The notes under the pieces are model-generated. The model did not search any database, was not told where the DNA came from, and saw only the letters and a list, made by a program, of their open reading frames with translations. The position numbers were made by a program, and so were the translations under genes. A DNA stretch of 20,000 nt. Source: an uncultured virus (IMG/VR IMGVR_UViG_3300031963_000096). Taxonomy: Duplodnaviria; Heunggongvirae; Uroviricota; Caudoviricetes. Positions 3-20,000 of the stretch are shown piece by piece. The stretch is taken from IMG/VR virus record IMGVR_UViG_3300031963_000096; one strand, written 5' to 3'. Within the stretch, counting starts at the first letter, position 1. The number at the start of each line of letters is the position of its first letter.

Positions 3-3000
3 GATACCACATTATTAGATCCAGCTCAAGGTGCTTCAAATTATCAAGCACCTGGCGCAACACGTTATGAAATTGCTACTCGATTATCAAAAAGAACTTT
101 AGACTCAGCTGACGAATCTTCATTTTTTGAAGTTATTCGCCTTGTTGATGGAGTTAAAACAAAAGAAATTGATTATCCAGTTTATAGTGAGATTGAAAAA
201 ACTCTTGCTAGAAGAACATTTGAAGAATCTGGTAATTATACTGTAGATCCATTTGTTCTTTCTTTAGAAGAAGAAGCTTATGATGCGAACAACACTTTAG
301 ATTCAAATTCATTTACGGCGGTATTAGATCCAGGTAAAGCATATGTCGGTGGTTACGAAGTTCAAACTATTGCTCCAACTAGAATTCAAATACCAAGAGC
401 ACGACAAACATCTAATGTTTCAGATTATGATTTACCAACAAACTATTCTAGTTTTGTCGTTTTAGCTAATACAACTGGAACATTAGATATTTCTTCTTTT
501 CCTGAATTAGATATTCATTGTACTCCACATACAACAATTGATTTTAGTTCTACGAATGCTTATAATTCAACAAAAATTGGAACATTAAGAGCTAATATGA
601 TGAAGTATAATGATGCTTCTTCATCAGTTCTTGGAAGTACTCATACATTTACAGTAAATGTTTTTGATGTGTCGTCAAAACCAATTACAGGAACAGTTTT
701 AACGGTAGGATCTACAAATACAGTTATTGAATTAGATGCTGCTACGTCAACAGGATCACAGGCAAATTGTTATGCAAATATGTACTTTAGAATTACTGAT
801 GGTGCTGGACAATTTTTAGCTCCAATTTTAATTAGAGAGTCTAATAGTATATCACAAACAGTTACATTGTCGCAAGCTTTACCTTTTATTCCTTCATCAA
901 ACACATATTCTATTGAATCAGATTTTAAAGTTGCTAGATCGATTTCGCAAAAATCAGGTTCTTCAAAAATCTTTGCAGCAGATGTTGGAAGTGATTCGAA
1001 AGATTCTACAACTGGTTTTTCTTTTATTACTGAACCAACAAAAACAAGTTTAGTATTTGATACACCATTTGAATCTATGAAATCAGGTAGTATTTCTAAT
1101 TTTGATTTTTATGCTCGAAAATTATATTCTGATAATTTGTCAGACGGTACAGGTCAAATGACGATCTCAACAACAGGTACAGATACATTTGATTTTGCTG
1201 GTTCACCTGGTACATTGTCTGACAACCAAATATTAAACAACATTATTTGCTTTATCAGATACAATTCAACATCAAATTCTACTTCTGGAATAGCACCAAA
1301 TACGGTCGTAAGTTTAGCTAATAACTTATTTACTGTTACAGCAATAAGTAATACTTCAATTACTGTTGATTTTGATACTGCCGGTGTTAGAGCAGATTTT
1401 ATCATCACAACTAAAGTAAACAATGCAGAAAACGGTACTACAGGTGCGATTCGTGGAAAACAACTGTTACCACTTTCAAACACTTCACATGAAAAAGTAC
1501 CTTACAATTTAGATACGGCTGGAGACTCATTAGATTTTGCAAATACTGGTAGTGTAATAAACATTACAGATGGTTTAGTATTTGAAGATATAGGTGCAAC
1601 ATTTATTAATGGCGCCAATACAATCGCACAACTTAAAACTCCTGGCACAGTTGTAAGCTTACAAGTACCTGACATTTATGAAATCGTCAGAATTACTGAT
1701 TCAAAATCCACAACAACGAATGTAACAACTGCAATGTTGACAAATGATGACCATGATGTTACAAGTCACTACGAATTCGATAATGGTCAAAGAAAAACTC
1801 ATTACGATCACGCAACAATAAAATTAAAAAGAGGATATAGTTCACCAACAGGTTCTTCTTTATTGATTCAATACAAATATTTAAAACATCAAGCGGCACC
1901 ATCACCACAAAATGAAGGTTTATTTACTGTTGATTCTTATTTAAAAACAGGATCTAATTTTACATATAATGAAATGTCTAAGTTTTTAAGTAATGAAGAT
2001 GGTAAATTAATTTCTCTACGTTCATGTTTAGATTTTAGACCTACTAGAACGATTGCTTCTAATACTTTTTTTGGTGCTGTAAATGTTGACCCAGATAGAA
2101 CAGCAGAACTTTCTTTTGAATATTACCTTAGTAGAATTGACCGACTTGTTGTTAAACCGTCAAAAGAATTTTCTGTTTTGTCAGGCAAATCTGCTGTATC
2201 ACCAATTCCTCCACCTGTGGATACTAATGATATGTTGATTTATACGTTAGATATTCCTCCGTATACTGAAACAGTTAAAGAAATAAAAGCAGAATTTAAA
2301 AACAATAAAAGATTTACAATGAATGATATTGGATCTTTTGAAAAGAGAATCAAAGGTCTAGAATATTATGTTGCATTAACTTCGTTAGAAAAAAATGCAG
2401 CTGACTCAAAAGTATTAGATGCTGATGGATTAGAAAGATCTAAGTACGGCATTTTAGTTGATAACTTTACTAATCGTGATGTTCAATCAACATATGGTGA
2501 TGTTGGATTTGATAACAGAAACCTTATTGAAGAAGGCGAACTGAAACCTGCATCTTTAATGAGAACTTTTAAAATGAAATGGTCATCTGCCAATTCATCA
2601 GGTTCTTATGCGGCTATTGGTGTAAATGACCAAAAGTCTTTGATGTTGAATTATACAACAAGTTCTTTTGCTTCGCAACCATATGCCACCAAATTTGTAC
2701 CTGTCGCAAATGCTTTATTTGCTAATTTTAAAGGTACAATGAGATTATTTCCAGAATATACAGGTGATGTAGATACTGGACATACTGCCAGAGTAACATT
2801 AAACTCTACTCAAGGTTTAGATAATGCTTTTAATTTTATTAATGAAGCATTTAAATTTATTTCTGATCAAAATCCAACATGGGTAAATGATAAAGACAAT
2901 CCTTTTGCTAAAGTAGTTGATACTAAATGGTTTGAGACCGTAACAACAGTAGATAACAGTACAGTACAATTAGGTCGCAGAGAATTTGGTAATTTACAAA

Positions 3001-5786: not shown

Positions 5787-8700
5787 ATGACTATTCCTAT
5801 CATAACAAGAACGAATACCATTGATGAATGGCGAATTCAAACAAATTTGTCAGCTATAGAATTAAATAATTTAAAAGCTAACAATTATACAAAATCAAAT
5901 GGTACTTTAGAATTAGCTAACAACTCTGTACTTTTAATAAGTGCAAACGGTACCGCACTCCAAGTTTCAAATAGTGCTTTTATCGGTAGAAATTTAGCAG
6001 TAACAAATAACGTTTCTGTTGGTGCAGTTGGTTCTGGTGTTGGTAATGTCTCTATAGGTAACTCTGTTTTGATTGCTGGACCCGGAGAAGCAGTTAACGT
6101 TTCAAATAGTGTTTATGTTGGTGGCAATAGCAATGTTAGAGGCAACGTGTATGCGAACAATGCAGTTGTCAATAATTCTGTTTATGTTGGTGGCACCGCT
6201 AACGTTGCTGGTATTGTTACACTATCAGGAACAGGTAAAGTATTGGAAGCAAATACTGGAACTGTATATGTTAATAATGCATATCTAACTACTGCAACAC
6301 TAGATCAAGCAAACGTTGAATTGATCTATGCTCTTGAAGCTAAAATTGACAACCTTTCTGATATTGCTTCTGCTGTAATTGGTATTTTGCGTGTAACAAC
6401 AGGTAATATTTATTATCTAACATCGAACACTTTATATGCTAATACTGGAACGATCAGAGATTTTGTTGCAAACAGCACAGGTAATGTAGTAACACTTATA
6501 TCAAATGTTGCAACAATTAATACCGCAACTATTGGTAACTTAAACGCAACAAATGGTACGATTATCAATGGTAATGTAGTAACACTTATATCAAACAATG
6601 CTACTTTAAATACATCTACTTTAGTTAATATAACAGTAACTAACGCTGCAATTGCAAATGCCGTTATTTCTTCGGCTGCAATTACGACTGGTCAAATTAC
6701 AAATGGTACAATTACAAATGGTACTATCATTAATGGTAATATAGTTACTTTAATTTCAAATAGTGCAACACTTAATAATTCTACATTGTTAAGTTCAAAT
6801 GTTGTTTCTGCAAATATTATAAATGCTAATGTTTCTGGTAATGTAAACTTTACCAATGGATCAACATTAAGATTTAATTCTGGATCAGCAAATGATGCTC
6901 TTGTTGTAGATTCAGGTATAACCTCTTTACAGACTGTCGTTGTTGAAGGAAACTTAACTGTTGCTGGAGTATTTACTCAAACAGGTAATATTAATTTTGA
7001 AACAGATAGATTCATTTTCAATGCAAATACACCTGACAATAAAGATGCGTTGATTGTTAATAATAGAATTTACGGAAATAATGCACAGATTGTTTGGAAC
7101 GAAACCAATGATCGATGGGAAGTTTCAACAGGTAATACTTGGACAACAACTTATAAGATTTTAGATGGCGCAGACATTTATACAGGTGTTGATTCTGATA
7201 GTACAACACTTGTAGCTTCTGCGAGTGCTGTTAAATTTGCATATCAAGCTGGTGGTGTTGTAGCCGGTGGCTATGCTAATGCAGCTTATAGACATGCCAA
7301 TTCTGCATTTGTAAGTCAAAATACAACAGGTGTTTATGCCAATACTGGATATGCTCATGCAAATTCAGCACATGATGTGGCAAATTCTGCTTTTAGTGGA
7401 GTAAGTGGTACACATGCAAATGCGGCCTACAGACATGCAAATTCATCTTATGCACATGCAAATACGGCTAATGTATCTGCTCAAGCTGCCTTTGATGCGG
7501 CTAACAATGCTTTTGCAGCTGGTGGTCAATTTGCTTATAGACATGCTAATTCAGCACACGATATTGCAAACTCAGCTTTTGCTGGAACAACAGGTACTCA
7601 TGCCAACTCAGCATATTTTACTGCAAATACCGCTTTAACAAATGCTGAAATTGCTGACCAAAAAGCTGTAGCAGCTAATACTAGAGCCGCTTTAGCTAAC
7701 GTTCATGCAAATGCCGCATATAATTTTTCAAACACAATAAACAACTTTGCTTTTCATGCTTATACTCATGCTAATGCAGCGTTTGCTCGAGCAAATACAG
7801 GAATTACATCTACTGGAGGTACTATAACAGGTGATTTAACAGTTAATGGAACATTGAATGCTACTGGAGCTTCAATTTTTGCAAATGATATGAAAATTGC
7901 AGATGGAATTATAACACTTAATTCTGACATATTACAAACTGCATCACCAATTGAAAATGCTGGATTAGAAATAGATCGAGGCGCTTCACCTAATGTATTC
8001 TTTTTATGGGATGAAACTTCCGATAGGTGGAGATTTACAAATGATGGTACAAATTATCAAGACGTTGCAGGTCAAACAACAATTAATTCATCTTTAGCCG
8101 CATATGTACCTTTAGCAGGTGGAACCATGACTGGTTTCTTGACTCTGAGTGCAAGTCCATCAAGTGCGATGCATGCTGCTACAAAAGCTTATGTTGATGC
8201 TACAATAGGATCAGCAGACCTAACAAATTTAAATGCTTCAAATTTAACAAGTGGTACTGTTCCAGTTGCTCGCTTGAGTGGATTATATAATATCAATGTT
8301 AATGGTAATGCTAACTATGCAACAACAGCTGGATCTGCCACAAGTGCAACGACCGCTAGCACCGCTTCCAGTTTAAATGGTGGTAATATTCAAAACTGTA
8401 CTGGTTTCGCACAAAGTAGTGGAGCATTTTCAATGACCGGAAGTTCTTTCGGTGTAAATCCCTATGCACAATTTTATGGAGGCATAAGATCTTTTGCTGA
8501 TATAAATGCATCTGGAGCAAATATAACAGCAAGTACTTTTTATGGTAATTTAAGTGGAACAGCAACACGAGCTCTTTATGGTGACTTGGCAGAAAAGTAT
8601 CTAGCTGACGGCGAATACGATGAAGGTACCGTAATGGCCATAGGCGGCGAAAAAGAAATAACAGCAGCAACAATTGCCAACTTTAGAGCTCTAGGTGTAG

Positions 8701-8930
8701 TATCATTGAGACCTGCACACTTAATGAATGCTGATTTGGAAAACGGAACAATTGTTGCTTTAAAAGGTAGAGTTCCTGTAAAAGTTATAGGCAAAGTAAT
8801 CAAAGGTCAACCTTTAGGATTAAGTAACATAGCAGGAGTAGCAAGTGTTAATGAAATGAATTACTTTGCATTATCTCTGATAGATAAGAACGATGATGGT
8901 GAAGGTATAGTCGAAGCAGTTATTTTATAA
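5787..8930 (+). CDS. Tail fibre / fibrous virion protein (1047 aa) with C-terminal peptidase-G2-like intramolecular chaperone domain
   Basis: N/T/S/A/G/V-rich, with pentapeptide beta-repeats (ITNGT), ANxAY/FxH heptads and a GGTMTG.L.L...P....HAATKAYVD fibre motif. The C-terminal domain reads GDLAEKY.ADGEY.EGTV..IGGEKEIT...GVVS..PA.LMN...VALKGRVPVKVIG.V.KG. Confidence 0.8.
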   Translation: MTIPIITRTNTIDEWRIQTNLSAIELNNLKANNYTKSNGTLELANNSVLLISANGTALQVSNSAFIGRNLAVTNNVSVGAVGSGVGNVSIGNSVLIAGPGEAVNVSNSVYVGGNSNVRGNVYANNAVVNNSVYVGGTANVAGIVTLSGTGKVLEANTGTVYVNNAYLTTATLDQANVELIYALEAKIDNLSDIASAVIGILRVTTGNIYYLTSNTLYANTGTIRDFVANSTGNVVTLISNVATINTATIGNLNATNGTIINGNVVTLISNNATLNTSTLVNITVTNAAIANAVISSAAITTGQITNGTITNGTIINGNIVTLISNSATLNNSTLLSSNVVSANIINANVSGNVNFTNGSTLRFNSGSANDALVVDSGITSLQTVVVEGNLTVAGVFTQTGNINFETDRFIFNANTPDNKDALIVNNRIYGNNAQIVWNETNDRWEVSTGNTWTTTYKILDGADIYTGVDSDSTTLVASASAVKFAYQAGGVVAGGYANAAYRHANSAFVSQNTTGVYANTGYAHANSAHDVANSAFSGVSGTHANAAYRHANSSYAHANTANVSAQAAFDAANNAFAAGGQFAYRHANSAHDIANSAFAGTTGTHANSAYFTANTALTNAEIADQKAVAANTRAALANVHANAAYNFSNTINNFAFHAYTHANAAFARANTGITSTGGTITGDLTVNGTLNATGASIFANDMKIADGIITLNSDILQTASPIENAGLEIDRGASPNVFFLWDETSDRWRFTNDGTNYQDVAGQTTINSSLAAYVPLAGGTMTGFLTLSASPSSAMHAATKAYVDATIGSADLTNLNASNLTSGTVPVARLSGLYNINVNGNANYATTAGSATSATTASTASSLNGGNIQNCTGFAQSSGAFSMTGSSFGVNPYAQFYGGIRSFADINASGANITASTFYGNLSGTATRALYGDLAEKYLADGEYDEGTVMAIGGEKEITAATIANFRALGVVSLRPAHLMNADLENGTIVALKGRVPVKVIGKVIKGQPLGLSNIAGVASVNEMNYFALSLIDKNDDGEGIVEAVIL
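6480..6760 (+). repeat. Intragenic repeats: exact 26-bp direct repeat (6480-6505, 6570-6595), diverged third copy (6735-6760), tandem 15-bp ITNGT units
   Basis: ggtaatgtagtaacacttatatcaaa occurs twice, 90 bp apart. It encodes GNVVTLISN, with a third copy GNIVTLISN. Confidence 0.85.
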
Positions 8931-8949: not shown

Positions 8950-10374
8950 ATGAATCAGCCTTTAAATTTTTATGCAAAAAAATCTATGAAAGGAAATCCT
9001 CATGTTTTTGATGATTACTTTCAATTGAGTGCTTTAACAATTACTGTAACGAGCGCATGTAATTTACATTGCGATTATTGTTTTGAAGAACATGAAAGTA
9101 GGTTAATAAAACCCGATGAAGTAGTTGACATTATTGATGTTGCATATAAGAATTTTAGAAAAAATAATCCTACTGGTTCAATGCCATTATCTTTTTTTGG
9201 TGGTGAACCTTTTATCGCATGGAAAACTATTCAAAGATGTATTGAACACGCTAAAGAAAAAGGTTATGATCTTTCTGTTGGCATAACAACAAACTTAACT
9301 TTGTTGACTGATGAACAAATGGAGTTCATTGATGAGAATGATATTGGTTTGTTAGTTTCAATAGACGGCACCAAAGAAGTTCATGATAGATTACGTGATA
9401 ATTCTTATGATGTTGTTTCTAAAAATGTCAAAAAACTAATAGACAATGGCATGAAAAGGTTAATAGAAGCTCGGATGACAGTTCCGCCAGGTGAATTTCA
9501 TAATCTTTTAGCTGGAGTTCAAAACATTTTTTCTTTAGGTGTTGATAACATTGCTCCTGTTCCTGTTACCGATCAAGTTTGGACTAAAGATCAAGTTAAA
9601 TTATTAGAAAATGAACTTGATAAATTGTATGAATGGACAATTTCAATATACGAAGATCCAAACAATAAAAGAAACATTAGTGTGAAAATGATTGATGATT
9701 ATTTGTTTCAATGCATACATGACGAATTTGATATGAAAGGTACACCTTGTAGTTTTGGAAGTAATAAATGGCTGAGTATAGGTCCTAGTGGTGAAATGTA
9801 TCCATGTCACCAAATACATACACGAAAAGATCAACAAGAATTGTTTTACATGGGAAATATTTTAAAAGGTGAAATACTTCCACATAGAATTTTAGGTCAG
9901 GTTTTGCCACATTCATGGAAAAAAGCTGACGATCCAGAATATACATGCGACACATGTGAGGCATATAATATTTGTAGAGGTTCTTGCCCAAGTGAAAACT
10001 ATGATTTAAATAAAGATTATTTAAAAACTCCAGATGAATGGTGTGATTGGGTTAGAATGTCAAAACGAATCACGAAAAAATACCAGAATCAACTTTTAAA
10101 TAGTAAAAATTTGAGAAATAAAAGATTAAATTCTATAAAACTAAATTTAGAGATTATGGAAATGATTGATAGGGTGAGAGAATATAATGTATACTCCCGA
10201 GAATTTCCTCTTGTTGTTCTTGATTTATATGAAAAAGTTTTAAGTTGTGAACATAATTTGTTACCTGGTTTTTCTGACTTATCAAAAAATAAATTAGCAA
10301 AATTTAGAGAACAACTAACACAAATTAGAGATGAATTAATTAAAAAAGAATCAATGCAAAAGGAAACAGTTTAA
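8950..10374 (+). CDS. Radical SAM/SPASM domain protein 1 (peptide/protein maturase-like)
   Basis: CNLHCDYC (CX3CX2C), FFGGEP, ITTN.TLL and VSIDG...HD..R. SPASM cysteines: PCSFG...GEMYPCHQ...CDTCEAYNICRGSCP...WC. Followed by a ~100-aa helical C-terminal extension. Confidence 0.95.
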   Translation: MNQPLNFYAKKSMKGNPHVFDDYFQLSALTITVTSACNLHCDYCFEEHESRLIKPDEVVDIIDVAYKNFRKNNPTGSMPLSFFGGEPFIAWKTIQRCIEHAKEKGYDLSVGITTNLTLLTDEQMEFIDENDIGLLVSIDGTKEVHDRLRDNSYDVVSKNVKKLIDNGMKRLIEARMTVPPGEFHNLLAGVQNIFSLGVDNIAPVPVTDQVWTKDQVKLLENELDKLYEWTISIYEDPNNKRNISVKMIDDYLFQCIHDEFDMKGTPCSFGSNKWLSIGPSGEMYPCHQIHTRKDQQELFYMGNILKGEILPHRILGQVLPHSWKKADDPEYTCDTCEAYNICRGSCPSENYDLNKDYLKTPDEWCDWVRMSKRITKKYQNQLLNSKNLRNKRLNSIKLNLEIMEMIDRVREYNVYSREFPLVVLDLYEKVLSCEHNLLPGFSDLSKNKLAKFREQLTQIRDELIKKESMQKETV

Positions 10375-10973
10375 TGGGTACCTCTGTACATCAATCACAA
10401 AATACGATCATCGAAAACGATGATTATAATCCAAATACTGAAAATGATGCTTGGAATATTCGAAGAAGATATGTTGGATTAGCTGCCATTTGGAGTAATC
10501 CAAACGCTGGAGATACTGGTTGTGCTAGAACGCAAACATATAGTACGTCCATAAGAGTTAGAAAATTTTCAGATGCTGGAAGACCTTATAGTGATGGTAC
10601 TATTCTTGGTCTTACTGTAAGACAGCCTGTAGACAATCAAGAAATTTTAGCTACAGATTTAGATAATGCAAGACGAATTATCAATGAAGGTGTTGCAGCT
10701 GTAAATCAATCTTTTTTAAATTCAACAACTGGATTTATTAATCCAGCTTCTGGGTATGCAAGTCGAGATCAAGAAATTTTAGCTTCACACATCAATAATT
10801 TAATTAATACTATTATAATCACAGAAACTAAGTTAGACATATACAATTCATATTATGATGGAGCTGACTTATGTCAAAGAAGTTGCCAAATACAATGTCA
10901 GACAGCATGCCAAACAAGTTGTCAAGGATGTAATACTTCACAATGCCACAATCAAAAATGTGGAGTGCATTGA
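10374..10973 (+). CDS. 199-aa protein with C-terminal Cys-rich CQxx-repeat tail; putative radical SAM substrate/precursor
   Basis: Ends CQRSCQIQCQTACQTSCQGCNTSQCHNQKCGVH (8 Cys in the last 33 aa). The start overlaps the rSAM1 stop (TAATG), and the gene sits between rSAM genes. The N-terminal part has repeated QEILA.....N motifs. Confidence 0.85.
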   Translation: MGTSVHQSQNTIIENDDYNPNTENDAWNIRRRYVGLAAIWSNPNAGDTGCARTQTYSTSIRVRKFSDAGRPYSDGTILGLTVRQPVDNQEILATDLDNARRIINEGVAAVNQSFLNSTTGFINPASGYASRDQEILASHINNLINTIIITETKLDIYNSYYDGADLCQRSCQIQCQTACQTSCQGCNTSQCHNQKCGVH

Positions 10974-10974
10974 T

Positions 10975-12300
10975 ATGTTTGATGTAATTTCCAAAGTAAC
11001 ATTAAAACTCAGCACATATTGTAATTTAGCTTGTGAGTATTGTCATCAAATGACTGATGATAAAAAACATCATGTTACTTTTGAAAAATATAAAGAAATG
11101 TATGACTTTTTACTAAAGACAAATTTGTCTGATGTTGTTGAAGTAACTTTAACTGGTGGAGAAATTTCCCTTTTAGAAGAAGAATATGAAACAGCTGTAA
11201 AATGGTTCAGAAAGATTGAAAGACAGAGAGATGTAAAGTTTACTTTTGCTGTTGTTTCAAATGGTACAAATATAAAACAATTATTTAAATTAATAAAACA
11301 AGGTGATTTAAATCCTAAAAGAACAACAATTAGTTGGGATGGATTATACACCATGTCAAAGAGTCGTAAAAGTAAATTTGAAAAATTCAATGATGATTTC
11401 TTTAAAAATGTTGTTACTGAAATTGGCCAAAGTCCATGGGCAAAGCAATTAAACATTACACATGCAATAACACCTACTACCATCCCTTATTTACACGATA
11501 GTTTAGTTTTTGCTTTAGATGCTGGTGTAAAAAATTTTGGTTTTTATTATATACATGAAGCCGATTATAGCGACAAAGAATTTTTAAAAATTTATGATGA
11601 ACAAGTTACAAAATTAGGTGAAGAATTTGTAAAACGATATGAAGATTTGTCAACAAGATTTGTTTATTATAATTGGCAATTATTATATGCTAAAGAAAAT
11701 TTGCCAACAGATAACAAAGAATTAATGAGAGCCACAACTCTTTGTCACAAATTAGGAAGAACGGTGCATTTTGACCCATTAGGTGACATTTATGGTTGTA
11801 TTTATTTTGGAGACCATAGAGCTCTAAAACTAGGTGATTTGGAAAATGGTAATATAGATAAAACGAAATATCAAAAATTTAGTGATCAATACTTCGAAAT
11901 GCCAGGTTGCAAATTAGATAGTTGTGGCAATTCACATTGTTTTGAATGTCCAGCAAGTAACTATGTACATAAAGGAAAAATGGCGAATAGATTTAGTAAC
12001 ACATGCGAAATGTTATCTATTGAAAAAAGAATTTACTATGATTTAAAACCTAAACTTAAAATAGATGAATTTGATAAAGCTTTTTATTGGATGGAAGAAG
12101 ATCATTTAGAACAAAAAAACTATGATGATAAGTATGAAACATATTTAAATGATATAGTAGGTATACCTTTAACTGAGGAAGCTTATGTTGAAGATGATGA
12201 GTACTCAAATAGATTAAGTCCAACGTATAAAAATGTTGTTACTTGGATGAAAAAAACTCCTAAGAAAAAAGAATTTACTCTAAATTTAGAAACCATATGA
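10975..12300 (+). CDS. Radical SAM/SPASM-like protein 2 (441 aa)
   Basis: Likely start is the ATG at 10975, 1 nt after the precursor TGA (MFDVISKVTLKLSTYCNLACEYC). Motifs LTGGEI, VSNGT and ISWDG are present. Auxiliary-cluster cysteines: LCHKLG...GDIYGCIY...CKLDSCGNSHCFECP...TC. Confidence 0.93.
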   Translation: MFDVISKVTLKLSTYCNLACEYCHQMTDDKKHHVTFEKYKEMYDFLLKTNLSDVVEVTLTGGEISLLEEEYETAVKWFRKIERQRDVKFTFAVVSNGTNIKQLFKLIKQGDLNPKRTTISWDGLYTMSKSRKSKFEKFNDDFFKNVVTEIGQSPWAKQLNITHAITPTTIPYLHDSLVFALDAGVKNFGFYYIHEADYSDKEFLKIYDEQVTKLGEEFVKRYEDLSTRFVYYNWQLLYAKENLPTDNKELMRATTLCHKLGRTVHFDPLGDIYGCIYFGDHRALKLGDLENGNIDKTKYQKFSDQYFEMPGCKLDSCGNSHCFECPASNYVHKGKMANRFSNTCEMLSIEKRIYYDLKPKLKIDEFDKAFYWMEEDHLEQKNYDDKYETYLNDIVGIPLTEEAYVEDDEYSNRLSPTYKNVVTWMKKTPKKKEFTLNLETI

Positions 12301-13586
12301 AAAAGAAGTTTTCAAAAATAGGTTCTAATATCAATCATGTTTATCTTATGATGACAGAGGCTTGTCCTTTAGATTGTGAATACTGTTACATAAAAGATAG
12401 AAAAACAAAAAACAATGTAAGTGATGAAGATATTGATACTTTAATAAATGCTTTTGAGTATCATACTCCTAGAATAATTTATTTTGGTGGAGAACCTTTA
12501 CTCGAAGTTGAACATATAAAAAGAGTTACTGAAAGATGGAAACATAGGTGTCAGTTTCAAGTTATAACTTCTGGATTAGTAAACTTCGATAAATTTGTTG
12601 ATGAAGTTTATTTACCTAATAAAGAAAAATTTGATATTCAAATATCTTGGGATGGTTTCGAAAATGACAACCGAGTTTTAAGAAATGGTAAAAATAAACA
12701 AGATAGAGTTATGGCCACCATATTAAGTACCTTAGAAATGGGTATACCTCTACAAGTAAGAAGTGTTATAAATGACGAAAATGTTGATAATCTCGTTAAG
12801 ATTTATGAGACCTATAGATATTTAAAACTTCAGTATCCACATTTGACGGGTGATATAACTATTGCTCATCAAAAACATTTCAAAGATGATTTTCCAGAAA
12901 AGTTTAGGCAACAATTTAAAACAACACTTGAAATAATTGAAGATGATATTAATAATGGTATAGAGCCTTATTTTCCATTAGAGTACATGAAAAAAATGAC
13001 TAGTGCGTTAAATGGAAGACATGTTAGTTCGTGTGATGCTGGAAATTATTTGGTTTTAAAACCAAGTGGCGCACTATATCCTTGTACAATATTAAGTCAA
13101 CAAAATGATGATGTTGATTTTATCATGGGTCATATTTCTGATAGAGACTTAGATTATGATATGATGGATAAAATGCGAAAGCCAAGTGAAGCTGAAATTT
13201 GCAAAACTTGTGGAGTTAGATCTGTATGTGATGGTGGTTGTCGATATGAAAGAGTTGCAAATTATGGTAAAGATTGGATGGGAAAAGTTTGTGGTTTTAC
13301 CTGTGGTGTTTCTGAAGCCTGGTTTCATGAAACAAAAAATTGGGTTTTAAACATGAATGAAAATGTTTATGAAAAAGTAATTCAGAGATTGGTATTATTT
13401 AATAATTGGGTTATTCATTATGATACTGGTCACCATGACGAAGCAAAAAAACACCAGACTTTTGATAGAGAACAATTGAAATTAGGTAAAAGATTAGATT
13501 TTTATAATTTTTATAAAGACACTACTGAGAAAAAGATTATACCTATTTTGCCATTGAGTAAAGAAAAAAATGTCTTTGTCACCTAA
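12297..13586 (+). CDS. Radical SAM/SPASM domain protein 3
   Basis: CPLDCEYC, YFGGEPLL and ISWDG. SPASM: SCDAG...GALYPCT...CKTCGVRSVCDGGCRYE...VC. ATGA overlap with the upstream stop. Confidence 0.95.
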   Translation: MKKKFSKIGSNINHVYLMMTEACPLDCEYCYIKDRKTKNNVSDEDIDTLINAFEYHTPRIIYFGGEPLLEVEHIKRVTERWKHRCQFQVITSGLVNFDKFVDEVYLPNKEKFDIQISWDGFENDNRVLRNGKNKQDRVMATILSTLEMGIPLQVRSVINDENVDNLVKIYETYRYLKLQYPHLTGDITIAHQKHFKDDFPEKFRQQFKTTLEIIEDDINNGIEPYFPLEYMKKMTSALNGRHVSSCDAGNYLVLKPSGALYPCTILSQQNDDVDFIMGHISDRDLDYDMMDKMRKPSEAEICKTCGVRSVCDGGCRYERVANYGKDWMGKVCGFTCGVSEAWFHETKNWVLNMNENVYEKVIQRLVLFNNWVIHYDTGHHDEAKKHQTFDREQLKLGKRLDFYNFYKDTTEKKIIPILPLSKEKNVFVT

Positions 13587-14802
13587 TTTTAAAAAATCTG
13601 TTGATGGTATCGCTAAAGTAGGTAGACAAAATAAAAGATTTGAAATATTTTTAAATCTTACCTATAAATGCCCTTTGAGATGTACTTATTGTTATGTGGA
13701 TTACAATAGGGCTCCTCCAATGACACAAGAGCAGGTTGATTATGTCATTGAAAAACTTCTCATTGAACCTAAAAAAACTGATATAAAGCTTGTCACCTTT
13801 TTTGGAGGTGAACCTGCTTTAGAGATGGACATCATAGAAAATACCTTAGACAAATATTCTCATGTTGAGAAAATAAAAAATGTTCATTTTGGAATCATAA
13901 CAAGTTTTTCTGTCAATCAAGATAGACTTTTAAAGTTACAAAAAAAATATCCAAAATTAGAAATAGCTATAAGTTTTGATGTTGATATGAAAGAAAGAGT
14001 CTTTATCAATAAAAAACAATTTGATTTATTAGGTGTGGCTAAGAAAAAATTTGATATTGATTTAGAAAAGATGAAAGAAAATAAAAATAATATTTTCTTT
14101 AATAAAGTTATTACAGGGCAAGAAACAGATTTATTTGGTGATTTGAAATGGCTTCACGATACTTATAGGGACTATAAATTATTTTATAGTTTATCGTTTA
14201 CGAAAACGCCTAAGTTTCCTTTTCATCCAGAAGGAAGAATAGAGGAAGGTTGGTATAAATATTTAAACTATATTTTTTCTAAGTATTTAACTAATGAAGT
14301 AGTATTTTTACCTATGTTAGTTTTACAATACTTAGATCGTTATTGGAAACAAAAAAAGAACACAGCCACTTCTGGTTGTGGTTTGGGTGGTGAATATTTT
14401 ATTGATAGTAATGGGACAGTTAGTCCATGCAGTATAAGTCATCATAGAACAGATTTAATGCTTTATCATGAAGGAAAGTTTCTCGACAATAATGAACACT
14501 TTCAAGAATTAGAAGATAGTTATTGGAACAATCCTACATGTCAGAAGTGTGAATATAAAGGTTTTTGTCCTGGCGGTTGCATGGTTTTTAGGTATACTGA
14601 AAATAACGATTACAATATACCAAATGAGGGCCAATGTATTTTGATGGAAGAAATTTTTAAGGCCTATGACAGATTTTTAAATGAACGTACAGAAAAAGAA
14701 ATAACTGAGTTAACTTTTATTCTAGCAAAAGATTTACAGAAATATCATTCGTATTGTCATCATGATGATGAACATATAGATTTACAAGCAATTTATAACT
14801 AA
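13570..14802 (+). CDS. Radical SAM/SPASM domain protein 4
   Basis: CPLRCTYC, FFGGEPAL and ISFD. SPASM: GCGLG...GTVSPCS...CQKCEYKGFCPGGCM...QC. 17-bp overlap with the upstream gene. Confidence 0.95.
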   Translation: MSLSPNFKKSVDGIAKVGRQNKRFEIFLNLTYKCPLRCTYCYVDYNRAPPMTQEQVDYVIEKLLIEPKKTDIKLVTFFGGEPALEMDIIENTLDKYSHVEKIKNVHFGIITSFSVNQDRLLKLQKKYPKLEIAISFDVDMKERVFINKKQFDLLGVAKKKFDIDLEKMKENKNNIFFNKVITGQETDLFGDLKWLHDTYRDYKLFYSLSFTKTPKFPFHPEGRIEEGWYKYLNYIFSKYLTNEVVFLPMLVLQYLDRYWKQKKNTATSGCGLGGEYFIDSNGTVSPCSISHHRTDLMLYHEGKFLDNNEHFQELEDSYWNNPTCQKCEYKGFCPGGCMVFRYTENNDYNIPNEGQCILMEEIFKAYDRFLNERTEKEITELTFILAKDLQKYHSYCHHDDEHIDLQAIYN

Positions 14803-14813
14803 GTGAGAACATT

Positions 14814-15965
14814 ATGCACATTTTTTTACCTGAATTAATATACAATGAAATAAAAGAAAATGATAAATTTAAATCTATTTACAATTCTTTAAATGATTTT
14901 TTTGATACAAAAACTAAGTGTTTAATTGATTACAATAATGAAATCAATAATGATGATTATTATAAAGATTTGAATGATTTTTTAAAGAAAAATTTATCAG
15001 AAAAAAATAATAAAATATGGAATTGTTTTAAAGTCTGTGTAGATTTTGATGAAAAAGATAGTAATAAAGATTGGGAAAAAATTAGAGAAGTAATTGATTC
15101 GTGCAAAAAAGACGATGATTTAGAAGTAAAATTGTATGCGTACTATATGGAAATGGCAAATACTGCTGATCATGAATCTGAAAAATGGATAGAAAATGTT
15201 GAAGAATCTTTAAAATTGTTCGATCAAAATAAAGATAAAGTTTTTGATACAAGATTGTATACAAAATTTTATTGGGATGTACACGAAAAAAATAATTTTT
15301 ATTTAAAAAATAAAAAAGAAAAAGATTTAATTGATGAATTTAAAAATTATCAAAAATTAGATTTAGAAACTAAAGATTTTATATTTTCAAAACATAATGA
15401 TACATACACTAAAGATATAATTAACCATAAAACAATATATACTGCAATTCAATTCTGGCATGCAAATTTAAATTCGGCGGAAAACGATCAAAAAAGTGCT
15501 GAATATGTTCTAAAAAAATTAGATGATAAAATTGCAAATTTAGATTTCAAATATAATTCTTTTAACATGCATTTAATGGAATGGCTATGGTTAAATTTTA
15601 AATGGCATTTAGATAGAGATAATATTCTAGCGGTTGATGTGGTAGAAATTATGATACAAATTGTTGAAGAAACATTAAAAAATAAAAATTACATGATAAG
15701 ATCTTTACGTCATCATAATTTTAATTATATTTCTAATTTTTTAATTTTAATGCAAAATTTAAATGAAGTTGAAAAAATCTTTGAAAAAGTGTTAGTAAAC
15801 TATGAAAGAAAATTAAACAAATTAAATTGGACAGAAAAAGAATATAAAGTTATTATTGATAATGATCTATCAATTACTAATAACTGGTGGAACGAAAGAA
15901 GTAGAACACTCAACAATTACAAAGAAAATATGATTTCTTCTATAAAAAATAAATTTTTAGGATAA
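14814..15965 (+). CDS. Hypothetical alpha-helical protein A (383 aa), paralogue of the next gene
   Basis: Long ORF in very AT-rich DNA, K/N/E/D/L/I/F/Y-rich. Starts MHIFLPELIYNEIKEN and ends IKNKFLG. No recognisable catalytic motif. Confidence 0.8.
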   Translation: MHIFLPELIYNEIKENDKFKSIYNSLNDFFDTKTKCLIDYNNEINNDDYYKDLNDFLKKNLSEKNNKIWNCFKVCVDFDEKDSNKDWEKIREVIDSCKKDDDLEVKLYAYYMEMANTADHESEKWIENVEESLKLFDQNKDKVFDTRLYTKFYWDVHEKNNFYLKNKKEKDLIDEFKNYQKLDLETKDFIFSKHNDTYTKDIINHKTIYTAIQFWHANLNSAENDQKSAEYVLKKLDDKIANLDFKYNSFNMHLMEWLWLNFKWHLDRDNILAVDVVEIMIQIVEETLKNKNYMIRSLRHHNFNYISNFLILMQNLNEVEKIFEKVLVNYERKLNKLNWTEKEYKVIIDNDLSITNNWWNERSRTLNNYKENMISSIKNKFLG

Positions 15966-15968
15966 AAA

Positions 15969-17174
15969 ATGTTAGTTTGGCTACCAGAAAATATCTATCA
16001 ATTAGTAAAAAATAATTCTGAATATATTTCAATAATTGAAGAATTAGAAAAAGTTTCTTTTGACGGAGAACTTTCTTCTACTGTACCTGAAAATACTCCA
16101 GAAACATGGCCTATCTATAGAAAATTATATTCATTTTTAAATTCTGTTGAGAAAAATGAGTACGAACAGATTACTTGGGAGTTGAATAAAATTCTATTTG
16201 ATAAGTTGTTTCTCGAAATAGATAATGAAAATTTTTCATATACAGACAAATTATTATCTTTAAAAGATACCTTAGTAAACATAAAAAATAAAATAGATTC
16301 TTTAGATGATTCTGTTATAAAAAACCTTCTAAAAATTAATTTTTTACAATATGAAATTTTAGCTTTGTCTGAAAATAATAGTTTTTTTTCTGCTGATTTG
16401 ATTGCAAAAAGGCAAGAATTGTTATCAACATTTGATTCGATTAAAAAAGAAAATGTGACTTATGATTCTGTAATAGATTATTTTGAAAATTATTTTAATC
16501 TATACATGGTAAATTTAATAAAAAATGAAAGTTTGGTGGTAAAATCTTTTAATGATTTACAATTAAATTTTAATAAATTTAGAATGGATCTTGATTTAAA
16601 AATTGATGAAGTAAAAAATTCATCAATTGAACACAACTACTTTAAACTTTTTGATGTTCTAAATTATTTAAAATTGTACTTTATAAACTTTTATTATGAA
16701 AGTTTTATACCAATGGTTAATTTAACTGATGATGAAAAATTGATAATTGACAAAAATATTGTAAAATATGCAAAGAGTGTAGATTTTAAATACAAAAATT
16801 TCAATATTATTACCTTACATTTTTATTGGATAAGAATGAAAATGTTTTTTTCATTTAAAGACTATGATCAGTTTTTAAAAGTTTTTAATGAAATGTGTCT
16901 ATATTTAAAGTTAAATTTAGATAATAATAAAAAAGATGTGATTAAATCTATAATTTTTCATACGCAATCTGACCACATAGATTTTTTAATTTTGATCAAA
17001 GTTTTATTAGAATTAGATGAGGAAATGAGTAAATTTTTTAAACAAGAAAAACAATTAGAAAATTTAAATTTATCTGAAAAAGATATTACTTTGATAAATG
17101 CAAATAATGATAACTATAAAAATTCATCTTACTTTTTTGATATTAATTTCATAAAGAATAGGTTCTATGGATAA
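15969..17174 (+). CDS. Hypothetical alpha-helical protein B (401 aa), paralogue of the previous gene
   Basis: Starts [16 protein letters not shown] and ends IKNRFYG. Lies 3 nt after the previous stop and overlaps erpA by 8 nt. Confidence 0.8.
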
Positions 17175-17502
17175 TTCTCAAATTACGATAACAGATAATG
17201 CTGCCTTTAAAATTGCAGAAATTATAAAAGATTCTGAAGCTGAAGGTCAATTTATTAGAACTTTTGTTCAAGGAGGCGGTTGTTCTGGTTTTCAGTATGG
17301 TTTTACTTTTGAAAATGAAATAAATGATGATGATTTTGTGGTTGAAAAAAATGACATAAAATTACTCGTTGATAGTATGAGTATGACATATTTAACTGGT
17401 GCAAAAATAGATTACAAAGAAGATTTAAATGGATCACAATTTGTCATTGAAAATCCTAACGCTCAGTCCACATGCGGTTGTGGGAGTAGTTTCTCAGTTT
17501 AA
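17167..17502 (+). CDS. erpA: A-type iron-sulfur cluster carrier/insertion protein (ErpA; HesB/IscA/SufA family)
   Basis: [44 protein letters not shown] and a terminal [10 protein letters not shown]. All three conserved Cys are present in the 111-aa protein. Confidence 0.95.
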
Positions 17503-17550: not shown

Positions 17551-17883
17551 TTGGCCGAATTTGTCGAACTAACCCTCGAACAGGGTGCAACTTTCAATAC
17601 AGTAATTAATGTAAATGATGGTACCGGCTCTCCTCAAAATCTAGTTGGATACACGGCACGCTCAATGATGCGCCGGTCCTACTATACTTCCTCATCCAAA
17701 GAATTTCAAGTTTCTGTTTCAACACCAGCCTTAGGTGAAATAACCATGTCTATGTCTGCGGCCAATACTGCAAATTTGACTCCAGGAAGATATGTTTATG
17801 ATGTGGAGATAGATGATGGTGCAGGTGAAGTTACAAGAATTTTTGAAGGTATTATTACCGTTTTGCCTAACGTAACGAGATAA
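17551..17883 (+). CDS. Conserved small phage structural protein (Ig-like / baseplate-upper-protein-N-like), TTG start
   Basis: AGGAG precedes the TTG. Pattern L.LEQGATF......D..G...NL.GYTARS.MRRSY...G.IT.S.SAA.TA.L.PGRYVYDVEI......V.RIFEGIITV.PNVTR is typical of T4-like aquatic phage structural regions. Confidence 0.8.
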   Translation: MAEFVELTLEQGATFNTVINVNDGTGSPQNLVGYTARSMMRRSYYTSSSKEFQVSVSTPALGEITMSMSAANTANLTPGRYVYDVEIDDGAGEVTRIFEGIITVLPNVTR

Positions 17884-17885
17884 AA

Positions 17886-18086
17886 ATGGCTATCACAGTA
17901 CAAGTAAAACCTAGAAAAACTACTATATCTTCTGTAACTGTTGCAAGAACAGCTAACCTCAATCTTGCACAAATTAATAATGTTGATATTATTACGCCTG
18001 CAAATAATCAAGTTTTGATGTATGAGACTGGTACTGAACGTTGGGTAAATAAAGAAATTCCAACAATTAGTGGCGGTACATTCTAA
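17886..18086 (+). CDS. Small tail-fibre-associated protein (66 aa)
   Basis: Contains the L..INNVD......NQVLMY......WVN fibre-type motif and ends ISGGTF. Lies 2 nt after the upstream stop, and its own stop overlaps the next ATG. Confidence 0.7.
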   Translation: MAITVQVKPRKTTISSVTVARTANLNLAQINNVDIITPANNQVLMYETGTERWVNKEIPTISGGTF

Positions 18087-20000
18087 TGACAATAATTCAG
18101 ATAAAGTATTCAACAGCGAATACTGAACCAGCTAATGGACAACTATCTGCTGGAGAATTAGCTTACTCTGAAGTATCTAAAAAATTATTTATTGGTAATG
18201 ATTTTGGTACTGCCAATGTTATTGGTGGCCAAAAATATATTGACCTTCTTGAATCAAATACTTCTTTTGCATCACCTGGTGCAATTGTAATTCGTGATTC
18301 TCAAGGTTCTTTTTTTGGAAATGTAATTACAGCCAATTCTTTTGTTGGTAATCTTGCTGGAAATTTAGATGGTAATGCTGCAACAGCTTCACGACTAGCA
18401 AATAACTTTACAATTACATTGACTGGTAATGCAAACGGTAATGTAAGTCTCGATGGTTCTTCAAATGTAACTTTAAATGTTACACTTGTAAATACATCGG
18501 TTACAAGTGGTTCATACGGCAATACAAGATTTATTCCTACATTTACTGTTGGATCAGATGGTCGTATTACAGGCGTAACAAATGTCGCTATAGACTTTCC
18601 AGATTCAGCCGACTTTTCTCAAGATTCTTATAATCAAGCAAACTCTGCATATGCACATGCTAATGCAGCTTATCAAACTGCTAACACAGCAATTTACTCT
18701 AATGCACATTCTAATGCATCATTTAATGTAGCAAATTTAGCTTTAACTACTGCAAATTCAGCATCTTCATATGCAAATAGTGGTTTTGCGGTAGCTAATG
18801 TTGCAAATATTAACGCAATTTCGGCATCATCTTATGCCAATTCAGCATATCAAACAGCCAATTCTGCAAGTTCGTATGCAAATAGTGCCTTTATGGCCGC
18901 AAATACAGGATTATTATCATTCAATACTGCAAATGCGGCTTTTAATACTGCAAATACAGCATTAACTACTTCTATTAATACTGCTTTATTGTTAGTAGAA
19001 ATATTTGCTAATGTCACTTCGACCGAAGAATCTATTGCAACAGCTGGCAGATATGCTAATTCAGCTTATCGACATGCAAATGCTTCATTTAATACGGCAA
19101 ATACTAAGTTTAATACTTCTGGTGGTACAATTTCAGGTGATGTTAATGTTACTGGTAATCTTACAGTTACAGGAAATGTAACTTATGTAGCAACAAATCA
19201 ATTGAATTTAGGTGATGCAGTTATAACTTTAAATGCAGATTTAGGACAAGCTGCTTTACCAACAGAAGATGCTGGTATAGAAATAGAACGTGGTAGGTAT
19301 CAAAATTCTTCCATACTTTGGAACGAAACTTTAGACCGGTGGCAGTTTACTGATAATGTTTCAACAAGTAACATAGGTTCGGCTGCGGCTGAAGTCTATG
19401 CTAATGCGGCTTATGATGCCGCCAATGCTGCATATGCTTTTGCTGGTCAAGCGACTATTGCTGTTTCAGGTTCAGCTTTAGCTGCTAACGCTGCGGGGTC
19501 ATATGCTAATGCGGCATTTTTAAGAGCCAACGCTGCATTTAGTGGTACAACTGGAACACATTCTAATTCTGCATATGCTCATGCTAATGCAGCTTTTGCG
19601 GCGGCAAATTCTGCAACACCTCAAGCCGTTCAATCAGCTTTTGATAAAGCCAATTCTGCTTTTGATGCTGCAAATAATGCTTTTATTGCAGGTGGTCAAA
19701 TTGCAGGATCATATGCTAACTCAGCATACATTCAAGCCAATGCTGCTTTTAATCGTGCTAATTCTGCCAATAACTTAGTATTAGAAACCAGAACACATGC
19801 TAATTCTGCATTTAGTGAAGCAAATAATGCTACGTTGATTGGTCTTGCTGCTTTTGCTCTTGCAAATAGTATTCAGTTTTCTCAAGGTACTGAAATTGCA
19901 ACATATGCTTGGGTCAATAGTAATGCAGCTTATAATCATGCAAACGGAGCTTTTGTACAAGCTAATACCGCTAATGTACAATCTGTAGTATCGGGAATAT
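18086..20000 (+). CDS. Long tail-fibre-like protein with Mtd-N-like N-terminal domain; 3'-truncated (>638 aa), absent from the supplied ORF track
   Basis: ATG at 18086 (TAATG overlap). Manual translation gives MTIIQIKYSTANTEPANGQLSAGELAYSEVSKKLFIGND...GNAATASRL...GSYGNTRFIPTFTVGSDGRIT...ANSAYAHANAAY..., with no stop before the window end (...ANTANVQSVVSGI). IQIK.S....P...L..GELAY......LFIG resembles the major-tropism-determinant N-terminal domain. Confidence 0.88.
   Translation, partial: MTIIQIKYSTANTEPANGQLSAGELAYSEVSKKLFIGNDFGTANVIGGQKYIDLLESNTSFASPGAIVIRDSQGSFFGNVITANSFVGNLAGNLDGNAATASRLANNFTITLTGNANGNVSLDGSSNVTLNVTLVNTSVTSGSYGNTRFIPTFTVGSDGRITGVTNVAIDFPDSADFSQDSYNQANSAYAHANAAYQTANTAIYSNAHSNASFNVANLALTTANSASSYANSGFAVANVANINAISASSYANSAYQTANSASSYANSAFMAANTGLLSFNTANAAFNTANTALTTSINTALLLVEIFANVTSTEESIATAGRYANSAYRHANASFNTANTKFNTSGGTISGDVNVTGNLTVTGNVTYVATNQLNLGDAVITLNADLGQAALPTEDAGIEIERGRYQNSSILWNETLDRWQFTDNVSTSNIGSAAAEVYANAAYDAANAAYAFAGQATIAVSGSALAANAAGSYANAAFLRANAAFSGTTGTHSNSAYAHANAAFAAANSATPQAVQSAFDKANSAFDAANNAFIAGGQIAGSYANSAYIQANAAFNRANSANNLVLETRTHANSAFSEANNATLIGLAAFALANSIQFSQGTEIATYAWVNSNAAYNHANGAFVQANTANVQSVVSGI

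Follow-up and report, generated by a model that had tools for sequence, protein, structure and literature searches.

Why should a phage carry four radical SAM enzymes in a single operon, and on what would they act? The question is raised by a 20,000-nucleotide stretch of DNA from an uncultured virus (hereafter the window), which corresponds to bases 19182-39181 of the linear 62,651-bp IMG/VR virus record IMGVR_UViG_3300031963_000096 (CheckV completeness estimate 15). At positions 8950-17502 of this window lie eight genes, all on the + strand and mutually overlapping or separated by gaps of at most 19 nt, so that the eight co-oriented genes of the original prediction, which had been made from the sequence alone, are real. 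They encode four enzymes (r1-r4), a 199-aa protein with a Cys-rich C-terminus (the Cys-tail protein), two accessory proteins (A and B) and an Fe-S carrier. The same prediction saw in them a self-contained viral system modifying the 199-aa protein, with a virion part as a likelier product than a secreted peptide, and every comparative test that we ran speaks in favor of this proposal, as far as sequence comparison can. We put the probability at about 0.6 that this cassette matures one phage protein post-translationally, most likely a virion component associated with the fibres, whose Cys tail would acquire thioether cross-links.

The four enzymes and their presumed substrate

The cassette is composed of the following features.

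8950-10374, + strand: r1, radical SAM/SPASM enzyme (Radical_SAM 63.9 bits)
10374-10973, + strand: Cys-tail protein, 199 aa, presumed substrate (family alignment)
10872-10970, + strand: eight-Cys C-terminal module of the Cys-tail protein, residues 167-199 (C-x3-C-x3-C-x3-C-x3-C-x2-C-x4-C-x4-C-G-x-H)
10975-12300 (listed as 10855-12300), + strand: r2, radical SAM enzyme with a divergent SPASM Cys pattern (Radical_SAM 38.2 bits)
12297-13586, + strand: r3, radical SAM/SPASM enzyme (Radical_SAM 48.1 bits)
13570-14802, + strand: r4, radical SAM/SPASM enzyme (Radical_SAM 42.6 bits)
14814-15965, + strand: accessory protein A, all-helical, tetratricopeptide repeat (TPR)-like (no family; AlphaFold2 model)
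15969-17174, + strand: accessory protein B, paralogue of A (BLASTP; in the lowest-GC part of the window)
17167-17502, + strand: ErpA-type A-type Fe-S carrier (NF010147 165.1 bits)

With these scores all four enzymes exceed the Pfam Radical_SAM (PF04055) gathering score of 29.5. Each carries the CxxxCxxC motif (residues 37-44 in r1, 16-23 in r2, 23-30 in r3 and 34-41 in r4) together with seven C-terminal Cys in SPASM positions and order, spaced atypically in r2 (C-x4-C-x4-C-x2-C). By this Cys pattern r1-r4 are members of the SPASM subgroup; TIGR04085 (cut-off 27) is passed by r3 (48.8) and r4 (43.9), and Pfam SPASM remains below its gathering score of 21.5 throughout (17.2, none, 18.1 and 16.8 for r1-r4). 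The earlier naming of four radical SAM/SPASM genes is thereby upheld for the families but not for one of the starts. The true start of r2 is almost certainly the ATG at 10975, one base past the stop of the Cys-tail gene, and not 10855, because the orthologue in another cassette locus (L012) begins at the equivalent Met and the first 40 codons of the long open reading frame (ORF) are an alternative frame of the Cys-tail gene.

The profile searches that had been suggested as a check place the enzymes in the ranthipeptide/SCIFF/QhpD neighbourhood and not with cofactor or nucleotide enzymes. The top-scoring family of all four is the PapB ranthipeptide maturase NF047865, at 180.5, 96.3, 106.7 and 87.6 bits for r1-r4 (equivalog cut-off 340, missed by all). 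The next-best models are QhpD, SCIFF, CXXX-repeat, nif11, DynA and other peptide maturases, again without the cut-off being reached for QhpD (TIGR03906, cut-off 453; 141.4 bits for r1, at most 58 for the others) or for the SCIFF maturase (TIGR03974, cut-off 425; 124.6, 51.2, 58.3 and 44 bits for r1-r4). TIGR04115 (CXXX-repeat) matches r1, r2 and r3 at 84, 55 and 61 bits, below its cut-off, and the C-terminal part of r2 weakly resembles the CXXX-repeat maturase domain (TIGR04119, E 7.9e-6, 25.4 bits versus a cut-off of 150). The cofactor and nucleotide enzymes MoaA, NrdG and QueE score far lower against r1-r4 than the peptide maturase models do. Of the solved structures, that of CteB, the SCIFF thioether synthase, is the best match to r1 (PDB 5WGG; E 6e-25, residues 25-360). 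Ahead of CxxxCxxC the four enzymes have just 15-36 residues (36 in r1), which leaves no room for an N-terminal RiPP (a peptide made by the ribosome and modified after translation) recognition element (RRE); likewise, their TIGR03974 alignments begin at model position 92-99 and therefore do not cover the RRE.

Between the window and L012 each enzyme scores 607-780 bits against its orthologue (r2 703, r3 698), while the four paralogues of the window score 0-68 bits among themselves and the cross-group maximum of the whole matrix is 81 bits. The enzymes form four separate orthologous groups and are no recent duplicates, and four separately conserved enzymes in turn imply four non-redundant steps.

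The presumed substrate belongs to a large family whose conservation is concentrated at the C-terminus. A word-index search gave 31 homologues of the 199-aa protein among 61 candidates, and an alignment of 30 sequences (33-85% identity) holds 26 invariant columns, of which 21 fall within the last 33 residues. A profile search of 1.84 billion representatives returned 124 clusters at E <=1e-3 and 88 at <=1e-10, a lower bound on the family; lengths range from 71 to 950 aa, and in nearly all clusters the match ends a few residues from the C-terminus. The complete tail is present in 138 of the 149 family proteins collected, with the exact spacing C-x3-C-x3-C-x3-C-x3-C-x2-C-x4-C-x4-C in 111 of these 138. 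Within the 111, the residue after Cys2, Cys3 and Cys5 is Gln in 108-109 and that after Cys4 in 100, with Met as the main replacement; Cys7 has His behind it in every one, and Cys8 has Gly in 109. The tail ends in two flavours, ...QCHNQKCGxH (as in the window) and ...TCHNQNCGGWS, and the family further conserves W-(W/F/Y)-D and C-H-N-Q elements.

The 199-aa protein of the window has an N-terminal helix with an IW.NPNAG motif, variable loops and a C-terminal helix. The AlphaFold2 model has three long helices and a Cys tail of low confidence (overall predicted local distance difference test score, pLDDT, 69.6). Foldseek found nothing in BFVD at E <=0.001 for this model, the top neighbour (E 7e-3) being a 200-aa phage protein auto-named 'Six-cysteine peptide SCIFF' in UniProt. 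Archaeal rod-shaped viruses account for four of the first ten BFVD neighbours, all uncharacterised and matched weakly (TM by query 0.42-0.47, E 0.08-0.67), perhaps through a shared helical bundle alone. The family profile gave one irrelevant match among PDB sequences (E 0.21). Weak links to known maturase targets appear elsewhere: the homologue in locus L019 matches the SCIFF peptide model TIGR03973 at 16.8 bits (cut-off 50), a CQxxC repeat on contig L009 matches TIGR04117 at 27.9 bits (cut-off 50), and the Pfam 38.1 family PF27846 (CXXX-repeat targets) appears on viral Atlas clusters.

Some searches returned nothing within their reach. The word-index search for longer homologues yielded none among 422 candidates, which is a limit of the method since long forms exist. 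In species-representative genomes 81 pattern matches led to 0 confirmed members, confirmation having used the first sequence only, which may miss divergent ones. GenBank phage records held no match for either tail flavour or for the TPR-like protein, and two weak ones for r2.

Recurrence of the cassette and its insertion in a T4-like phage

Viral and metagenome contigs yielded 14 distinct loci of the cassette (GC 0.25-0.375; contigs of up to 231 kb). The neighbourhood survey proposed with the original prediction was to look for a recurring group of fibre genes, radical SAM genes, a Cys-rich ORF and a HesB-type carrier. Its core is confirmed, with the Cys-tail gene kept in all 14 loci; the fibre link does not hold throughout, as described below, and the carrier (ErpA) does not recur. 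The Cys-tail gene is immediately preceded by that for r1 in all 12 loci that have upstream DNA, and this adjacency persists across lineages with rearranged gene order. Orthologues of r2 and r3 are found in 13 of the 14, the exception (L013) having r1 and the Cys-tail gene alone. In contrast to this strict co-occurrence, r4 is confined to the lineage of the window, L012 and L025, and a jumbo-phage lineage has a second r2-like gene instead. Taken together with the conservation of the tail, this pattern argues strongly that the Cys-tail protein is the substrate of r1-r4.

The two proteins of no assigned function, earlier described as paralogous, are indeed weakly so (BLASTP, 27% over 159 aa, E 2e-5; each of about 390 aa), and neither A nor B fell into a family in Pfam, NCBIfam or PHROG searches. 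An alignment of 14 homologues of A from cassettes has a conserved N-terminal motif, M..(Y/F/W).PE.(I/V)Y, and homologues of A/B, recognized by the motif around 'PERIY', occur in every cassette lineage with enough DNA; a B orthologue is present in L012. AlphaFold2 models A as an all-helical solenoid of 18 helices (pLDDT 79.5), for which Foldseek gave weak TPR, Rap or AimR-like helical-repeat neighbours, the best at E 0.036. Predictions of a complex between A and the Cys-tail protein gave run values of 0.37, 0.00 and 0.00, no verdict either way. The carrier gene, by comparison with its full-length model, is a clear ErpA (NF010147 cut-off 117; Pfam Fe-S_biosyn 77.2 bits) with the conserved Cys in GGGCSG and in the C-terminal TCGCGSSF. 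The Fe-S carrier that had been read from the sequence is thus genuine, although not a general part of the cassette: among the loci examined it occurs in the window only, and so is a lineage-specific add-on.

The source record is that of a T4-like freshwater myovirus related to pelagimyophages. Upstream of the window, a PHROG search identified homologues of the DNA end protector, head closure protein, baseplate tube cap, hub/lysozyme and wedge subunits. The nearest isolates, Methylophilales phage Melnitz and the Pelagibacter phages Mosig and HTVC008M, share 43-44% identity with it in the gp6-like wedge protein. The record has the baseplate, tail and head-completion gene set of such phages and shares a gene order with HTVC008M, in which a giant VrlC-like protein comes first, then a fibre-sized ORF with a small ORF on either side, and after these a 110/112-aa protein and another ORF of fibre size. 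The giant protein, of 2065 aa (window 3-5549, record 18533-24730), has a DUF4815 region and a strong phrog_358 match (E 7e-190), and is the counterpart of the HTVC008M 'VrlC protein'. The 110-aa backbone protein is 39% identical (E 5e-22) to the 112-aa protein at the same position in HTVC008M, where this backbone order occurs without the cassette. Relative to HTVC008M, the cassette is an insertion into a shared gene order: an accessory phage operon of 8.5 kb sitting in the fibre region, with a 1047-aa fibre-like gene (5787-8930) on its left and the 110-aa gene (17551-17883) on its right. Two other assemblies, L005 and L010, each hold a colinear copy (nucleotide identities of 96.2% and 98.9%), which rules out an assembly artefact or chimeric contig.

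Base composition hints at the history of the insert. GC falls from about 0.32 to 0.21 over the two accessory genes; measured along the window it is 0.21-0.26 at 14001-17000 (r4 and both TPR-like genes) versus 0.31-0.39 in the flanking structural genes, which suggests that the cassette, or at least its helper genes, derived from a lower-GC phage. A promoter/terminator scan gave no informative promoter signal (74 promoter-like sites versus 77.7 expected), and the T4 late-promoter core TATAAATA occurs in one copy, inside r4, versus 4.06 expected. On the + strand there is no terminator-like site in the 19-nt gap between the upstream structural gene and the operon.

Outside the window lineage the surroundings differ. 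In the jumbo-phage lineage (L017-L023) the cassette adjoins RNA polymerase beta-subunit genes, and in L013 the pair of r1 and Cys-tail gene adjoins thymidylate synthase and head genes; the position within a fibre module is lineage-specific. The polymerase genes are of the split, multisubunit kind (phrog_2987 and phrog_2962, tested on L019), and ORFs with the same N-terminal sequences stand at those flank positions in L018, L022 and L023; with their own RNA polymerase genes beside the cassette, the phages of L018, L019, L022 and L023 are of the jumbo type. Two loci of this lineage carry HNH homing-endonuclease genes inside the cassette, between the Cys-tail gene and r3 (L017 8146-9831 and L020 6983-7855; phrog_59 matches at E 1e-27 to 3e-30), and L021 has a 290-aa ORF at the equivalent position (6996-7868).

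A different phage may hold a further pair of this type. In Phage Phass-1 (L026, OQ749652), a TAG-recoding gut phage, an unannotated 78-codon frame at about 9435-9670 on the + strand has 8 Cys in 40 residues at its end and lies about 290 bp after an r1-like radical SAM gene; the two could be another enzyme and its substrate.

Proposed virion location and competing explanations

Is the modified protein a component of the particle? The genes around the cassette are as follows.

5787-8930, + strand: upstream fibre-like structural protein, 1047 aa (context; phrog_22593 at residues 917-1023; 1 Cys)
17551-17883, + strand: backbone gene, 110 aa, right edge of the insertion (phrog_1084; phrog_3304 'L-shaped tail fiber protein assembly')
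17886-18086: small ORF between ErpA and the second fibre
18086-19999, + strand: downstream fibre-like protein, 1250 aa in the full record (context; weak tail-fibre PHROG matches; 0 Cys in the window part)

The cassette had been placed between two tail-fibre genes. Its location is as described, apart from two small ORFs ahead of the second fibre, and the naming of the fibres is less firm. The sole match of the upstream protein, at its C-terminus, is phrog_22593 (function not assigned), a domain that also ends the collagen-like tail-fibre protein preceding the cassette in L012; the ORF at 18086 has weak tail-fibre PHROG matches (E 5e-6 to 7e-4). We also considered the flanking fibres as substrates and rejected them on their Cys counts, the upstream protein being no candidate because it holds one Cys.

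A second line of evidence comes from domain fusions in the Cys-tail family. The extra domains of long members sit between the conserved N-terminal helix and the C-terminal module, and tail-family PHROG domains are found in 7 of the 30 long members tested, as well as in the proteins of L013, L015 and L016. CBM_5_12 is above cut-off in P0041 and in the L013 protein, Gly_rich_2 is above cut-off in P0052, P0137 and P0146, and F5/8 type C domains occur below threshold in long members.

A third line is provided by phages unrelated to that of the window. The high-GC contig L009 runs from a head-tail adaptor gene through those for a tail assembly chaperone, the tape measure and a phrog_8610 protein to that for a 1138-aa protein with some 30 CQxxC repeats at its end, which is followed by a radical SAM/SPASM gene. 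A scan for a pattern of four CQ steps gave 39 viral loci, 25 of them with a CQ-repeat ORF, and in 19 of these 25 a radical SAM gene lies within 300 bp on the same strand (two pairs among the CQ-repeat loci share a contig with another locus). The contigs with CQxxC repeats are siphovirus-like. Some high-GC proteins of 613-1253 aa have 134-191 Cys, nearly all in C[QEM]xxC (L038/L039 3534-7112, L031 1130-2971 and L066 1734-5495), tracts that are, to our knowledge, far longer than any known radical SAM target. Close to one pair of CQ-repeat tail protein and radical SAM gene is part of a 2OG-Fe(II) oxygenase gene (L035, 3-491), which hints at further modifying enzymes in some versions of the system.

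On these grounds a virion location of the Cys-tail protein can be put forward with moderate confidence, and the same holds for thioether chemistry. Several observations weigh against the two. Every maturase family score is far below its curated cut-off, so that the chemistry is read from the family neighbourhood only, and SPASM enzymes also form C-C, ether and cyclophane links and formylglycine. The tail of the window protein itself matches neither the SCIFF (TIGR03973, cut-off 50) nor the CXXX-target model (TIGR04117, cut-off 50), and its predicted fold resembles nothing solved (Foldseek versus PDB, nothing at E <=0.001). As to location, 23 of the 30 long family members are without a PHROG match, and tail matches near the jumbo-phage cassettes, with their polymerase neighbours, are only weak. 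The large CQ-repeat proteins match no tail family (Pfam 0 of 14; PHROG mostly families of unknown function), and their tail assignment rests on the L009 gene order because family searches named none. The restriction of ErpA to one lineage also counts on this side.

The alternative that survives best, although unlikely, is that the modified protein is not in the particle but is a RiPP-like product acting in the infected cell or after lysis, such as a receptor-blocking lectin factor for superinfection exclusion, an anti-defence factor or a bacteriocin-like protein, with the fibre position incidental. The settings of the jumbo-phage cassette, beside RNA polymerase genes and not fibres, and of the L013 pair, beside thymidylate synthase and head genes, would agree with such a product; the known relatives of the enzymes, by family name, make secreted or free peptides, and carbohydrate-binding inserts would also suit a free cell-surface binder. 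Yet no signal peptide was found, and Pfam detected no peptidase or transporter domain in the cassette ORFs or cassette-internal ORFs tested, bearing out the earlier remark that peptidase and exporter are lacking. Family members of up to 950 aa, the tail-family domains in 7 of the 30 long ones and the CQxxC tails fused to a protein behind the tape measure in other phages likewise speak against a free product, and the operon is continuous with structural genes across its 19-nt, terminator-free gap.

We consider it improbable that the tail, with eight invariant Cys and invariant His residues, is instead a metal or Fe-S site loaded or used by the Fe-S enzymes and ErpA. The CxxxC spacing, with an invariant Gln after Cys that is sometimes Met, is no Fe-S or zinc motif known to us. 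The Fe-S carrier within the operon would suit such a site, but ErpA is absent from the other cassette loci examined, and four distinct, conserved radical SAM enzymes of the peptide-maturase type would be superfluous for metal loading. For their own Cys-rich protein, CrpA, the authors of a related study do weigh metal binding (PMC13692751).

Finally, an action of the radical SAM enzymes on another protein, a nucleotide or a cofactor, their adjacency being functionally meaningless, is very improbable. In its favour, all equivalog cut-offs are missed and T4-like marine viral genomes carry up to 12 radical SAM genes of unknown role (PMC5332604); against it, r1 adjoins the Cys-tail gene in 12 of 12 loci of varied gene order and GC 0.25-0.375, CQ-repeat ORFs independently adjoin radical SAM genes in 19 of 25 loci, and the flanking fibre proteins hold 1 and 0 Cys.

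If the cassette does mature a fibre-associated virion protein, the following course can be envisaged. The 199-aa protein would be built from a small helical base, a variable middle, which in relatives holds carbohydrate-binding or tail-type domains, and the invariant eight-Cys tail. On this tail r1-r4, each with three predicted [4Fe-4S] clusters, would act non-redundantly, taking hydrogen from nearby side chains and bonding Cys sulfur to carbon, with the invariant Gln, and also Thr, Asn and His, as candidate acceptors. The invariant Gln directly after each Cys is five residues past the previous Cys, reportedly the spacing of the Cys-Thr link in CteA, and its occasional replacement by Met fits an aliphatic acceptor carbon. 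Several thioether bridges would thus tie the tail into a rigid knot that resists reduction; some of the four enzymes may act on the W-(W/F/Y)-D or C-H-N-Q elements and make cyclophane, ether or C-C links there. With weak confidence, we propose that the TPR-like proteins hold and present the substrate in place of an RRE, since the enzymes are without one, and that in a streamlined, aerobic host ErpA is the source of the enzymes' twelve [4Fe-4S] clusters. The mature product would be an adhesin or fibre accessory.

Known routes of capsid and tail maturation are proteolysis, isopeptide formation (HK97) and disulfide formation. If our reading is correct, virion proteins chemically stapled by radical enzymes before assembly would add a further type. 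RiPP enzymology would then reach beyond short peptides, to a large family of whole proteins specific to phages, and protein engineering would gain a defined 33-residue tag with four cognate enzymes. It would also become clear why marine and freshwater phages of the T4 type bring many radical SAM genes and an Fe-S carrier of their own, which was noted as a puzzle in 2017 (PMC5332604). A broader proposal is more tentative, and we hold it somewhat less probable than its negation: several unrelated phage lineages would build part of their host-contact apparatus by RiPP-type chemistry, three to four radical SAM/SPASM enzymes with TPR-like helpers turning an eight-Cys module or tail-tip CQxxC repeats into a polycyclic thioether knot that serves the virion structurally or in attachment. 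On this proposal the knot would be the first RiPP-like covalent cross-link that an enzyme installs in a virus particle, and the substrates, with >120 sequence clusters, would make up a new class of whole-protein ranthipeptide-like targets.

Comparison with known systems

The ranthipeptide system of Clostridia, CteB/SCIFF (CteA), resembles the phage system in its SPASM enzyme and in a substrate whose Cys-rich C-terminal core has C-Q-T/S-x-C motifs. It differs in several respects: the phage enzymes are without the N-terminal RRE and reach 124.6 bits against a cut-off of 425, the phage substrates have 71-950 aa versus a peptide of about 45 aa, and four enzymes with TPR-like proteins, all phage-encoded, stand against one enzyme. 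PapB/PapA (freyrasin, NF047865) is the top family of all four enzymes and has a repeated Cys-x3 spacing in its substrate; the phage enzymes, however, score 88-181 bits against the cut-off of 340, and the leader/RRE logic is absent from the phage system. The acceptor in PapA is Asp, in contrast to the conserved Gln, Thr, Asn and His of the phage tail.

Two systems modify whole proteins. QhpD, which acts on QhpC in quinohemoprotein amine dehydrogenase maturation, is the second-best family of r1 (141 bits), and is described as installing several thioethers in a protein subunit that stays in a larger assembly (PMC13692751). It differs in the unmet cut-off of 453, in its substrate family and in its use of an RRE, and Pfam and PHROG searches found no dehydrogenase-subunit or flavoprotein genes in the window. 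CrpC of Methanococcus voltae is a SPASM enzyme shown by experiment to place ranthionine links in a whole Cys-rich protein, CrpA, which has a C-terminal repeat region (PMC13692751, 2026). There, C-x-x-Q/D motifs are noted, and Met and Asp occur in modified motifs; the window tail is similar in having C-H-N-Q and occasional Gln-to-Met replacements. CrpC is unlike the phage system in having an RRE, in being a single archaeal enzyme, in its other Cys motif and in its non-viral setting. The CXXX-repeat system (TIGR04115/TIGR04117/TIGR04119) also has a Cys at every fourth residue of its substrate, whereas the window tail has five CxxxC steps followed by a C-x2-C-x4-C-H-N-Q-x-C-G end, and the scores are below the cut-offs.

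Among phages, T4-like marine genomes related to HTVC008M carry an ATC (ErpA/IscA-type) gene with 2-12 further Fe-S-related genes, including radical SAM genes, which the study treats as Fe-S-related auxiliary metabolism (Nishimura et al. 2017, PMC5332604). Unlike the present analysis, its section 14 describes no Cys-rich substrate, operon structure or virion link. The Campylobacter CP220-like phages, named at the outset as having multiple radical SAM genes, are indeed T4-like phages of this kind and are matched by r1 at 23.6% identity over 55% of its length. The phage record collection, however, yielded for them no homologue of the Cys-tail protein, r2 or the TPR-like protein, and in CP20 the r1-matching gene does not adjoin a Cys-tail ORF. 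The CP20 genome (L027, MK408758) has at about 15802-16041 on the + strand a small ORF with 12 Cys in 40 residues (repeat of the C-x-N-C-x-N-C type), adjoining the portal gene and about 7 kb from a SPASM-type radical SAM gene.

In the full-text literature, subscription journals being outside the scope, we found no account of radical SAM modification of a phage structural protein or of this Cys-tail family. Compared with the systems above, the enzyme class and its likely chemistry are already known; new are the phage context, the multi-enzyme architecture with TPR-like proteins and a defined family of whole-protein substrates.

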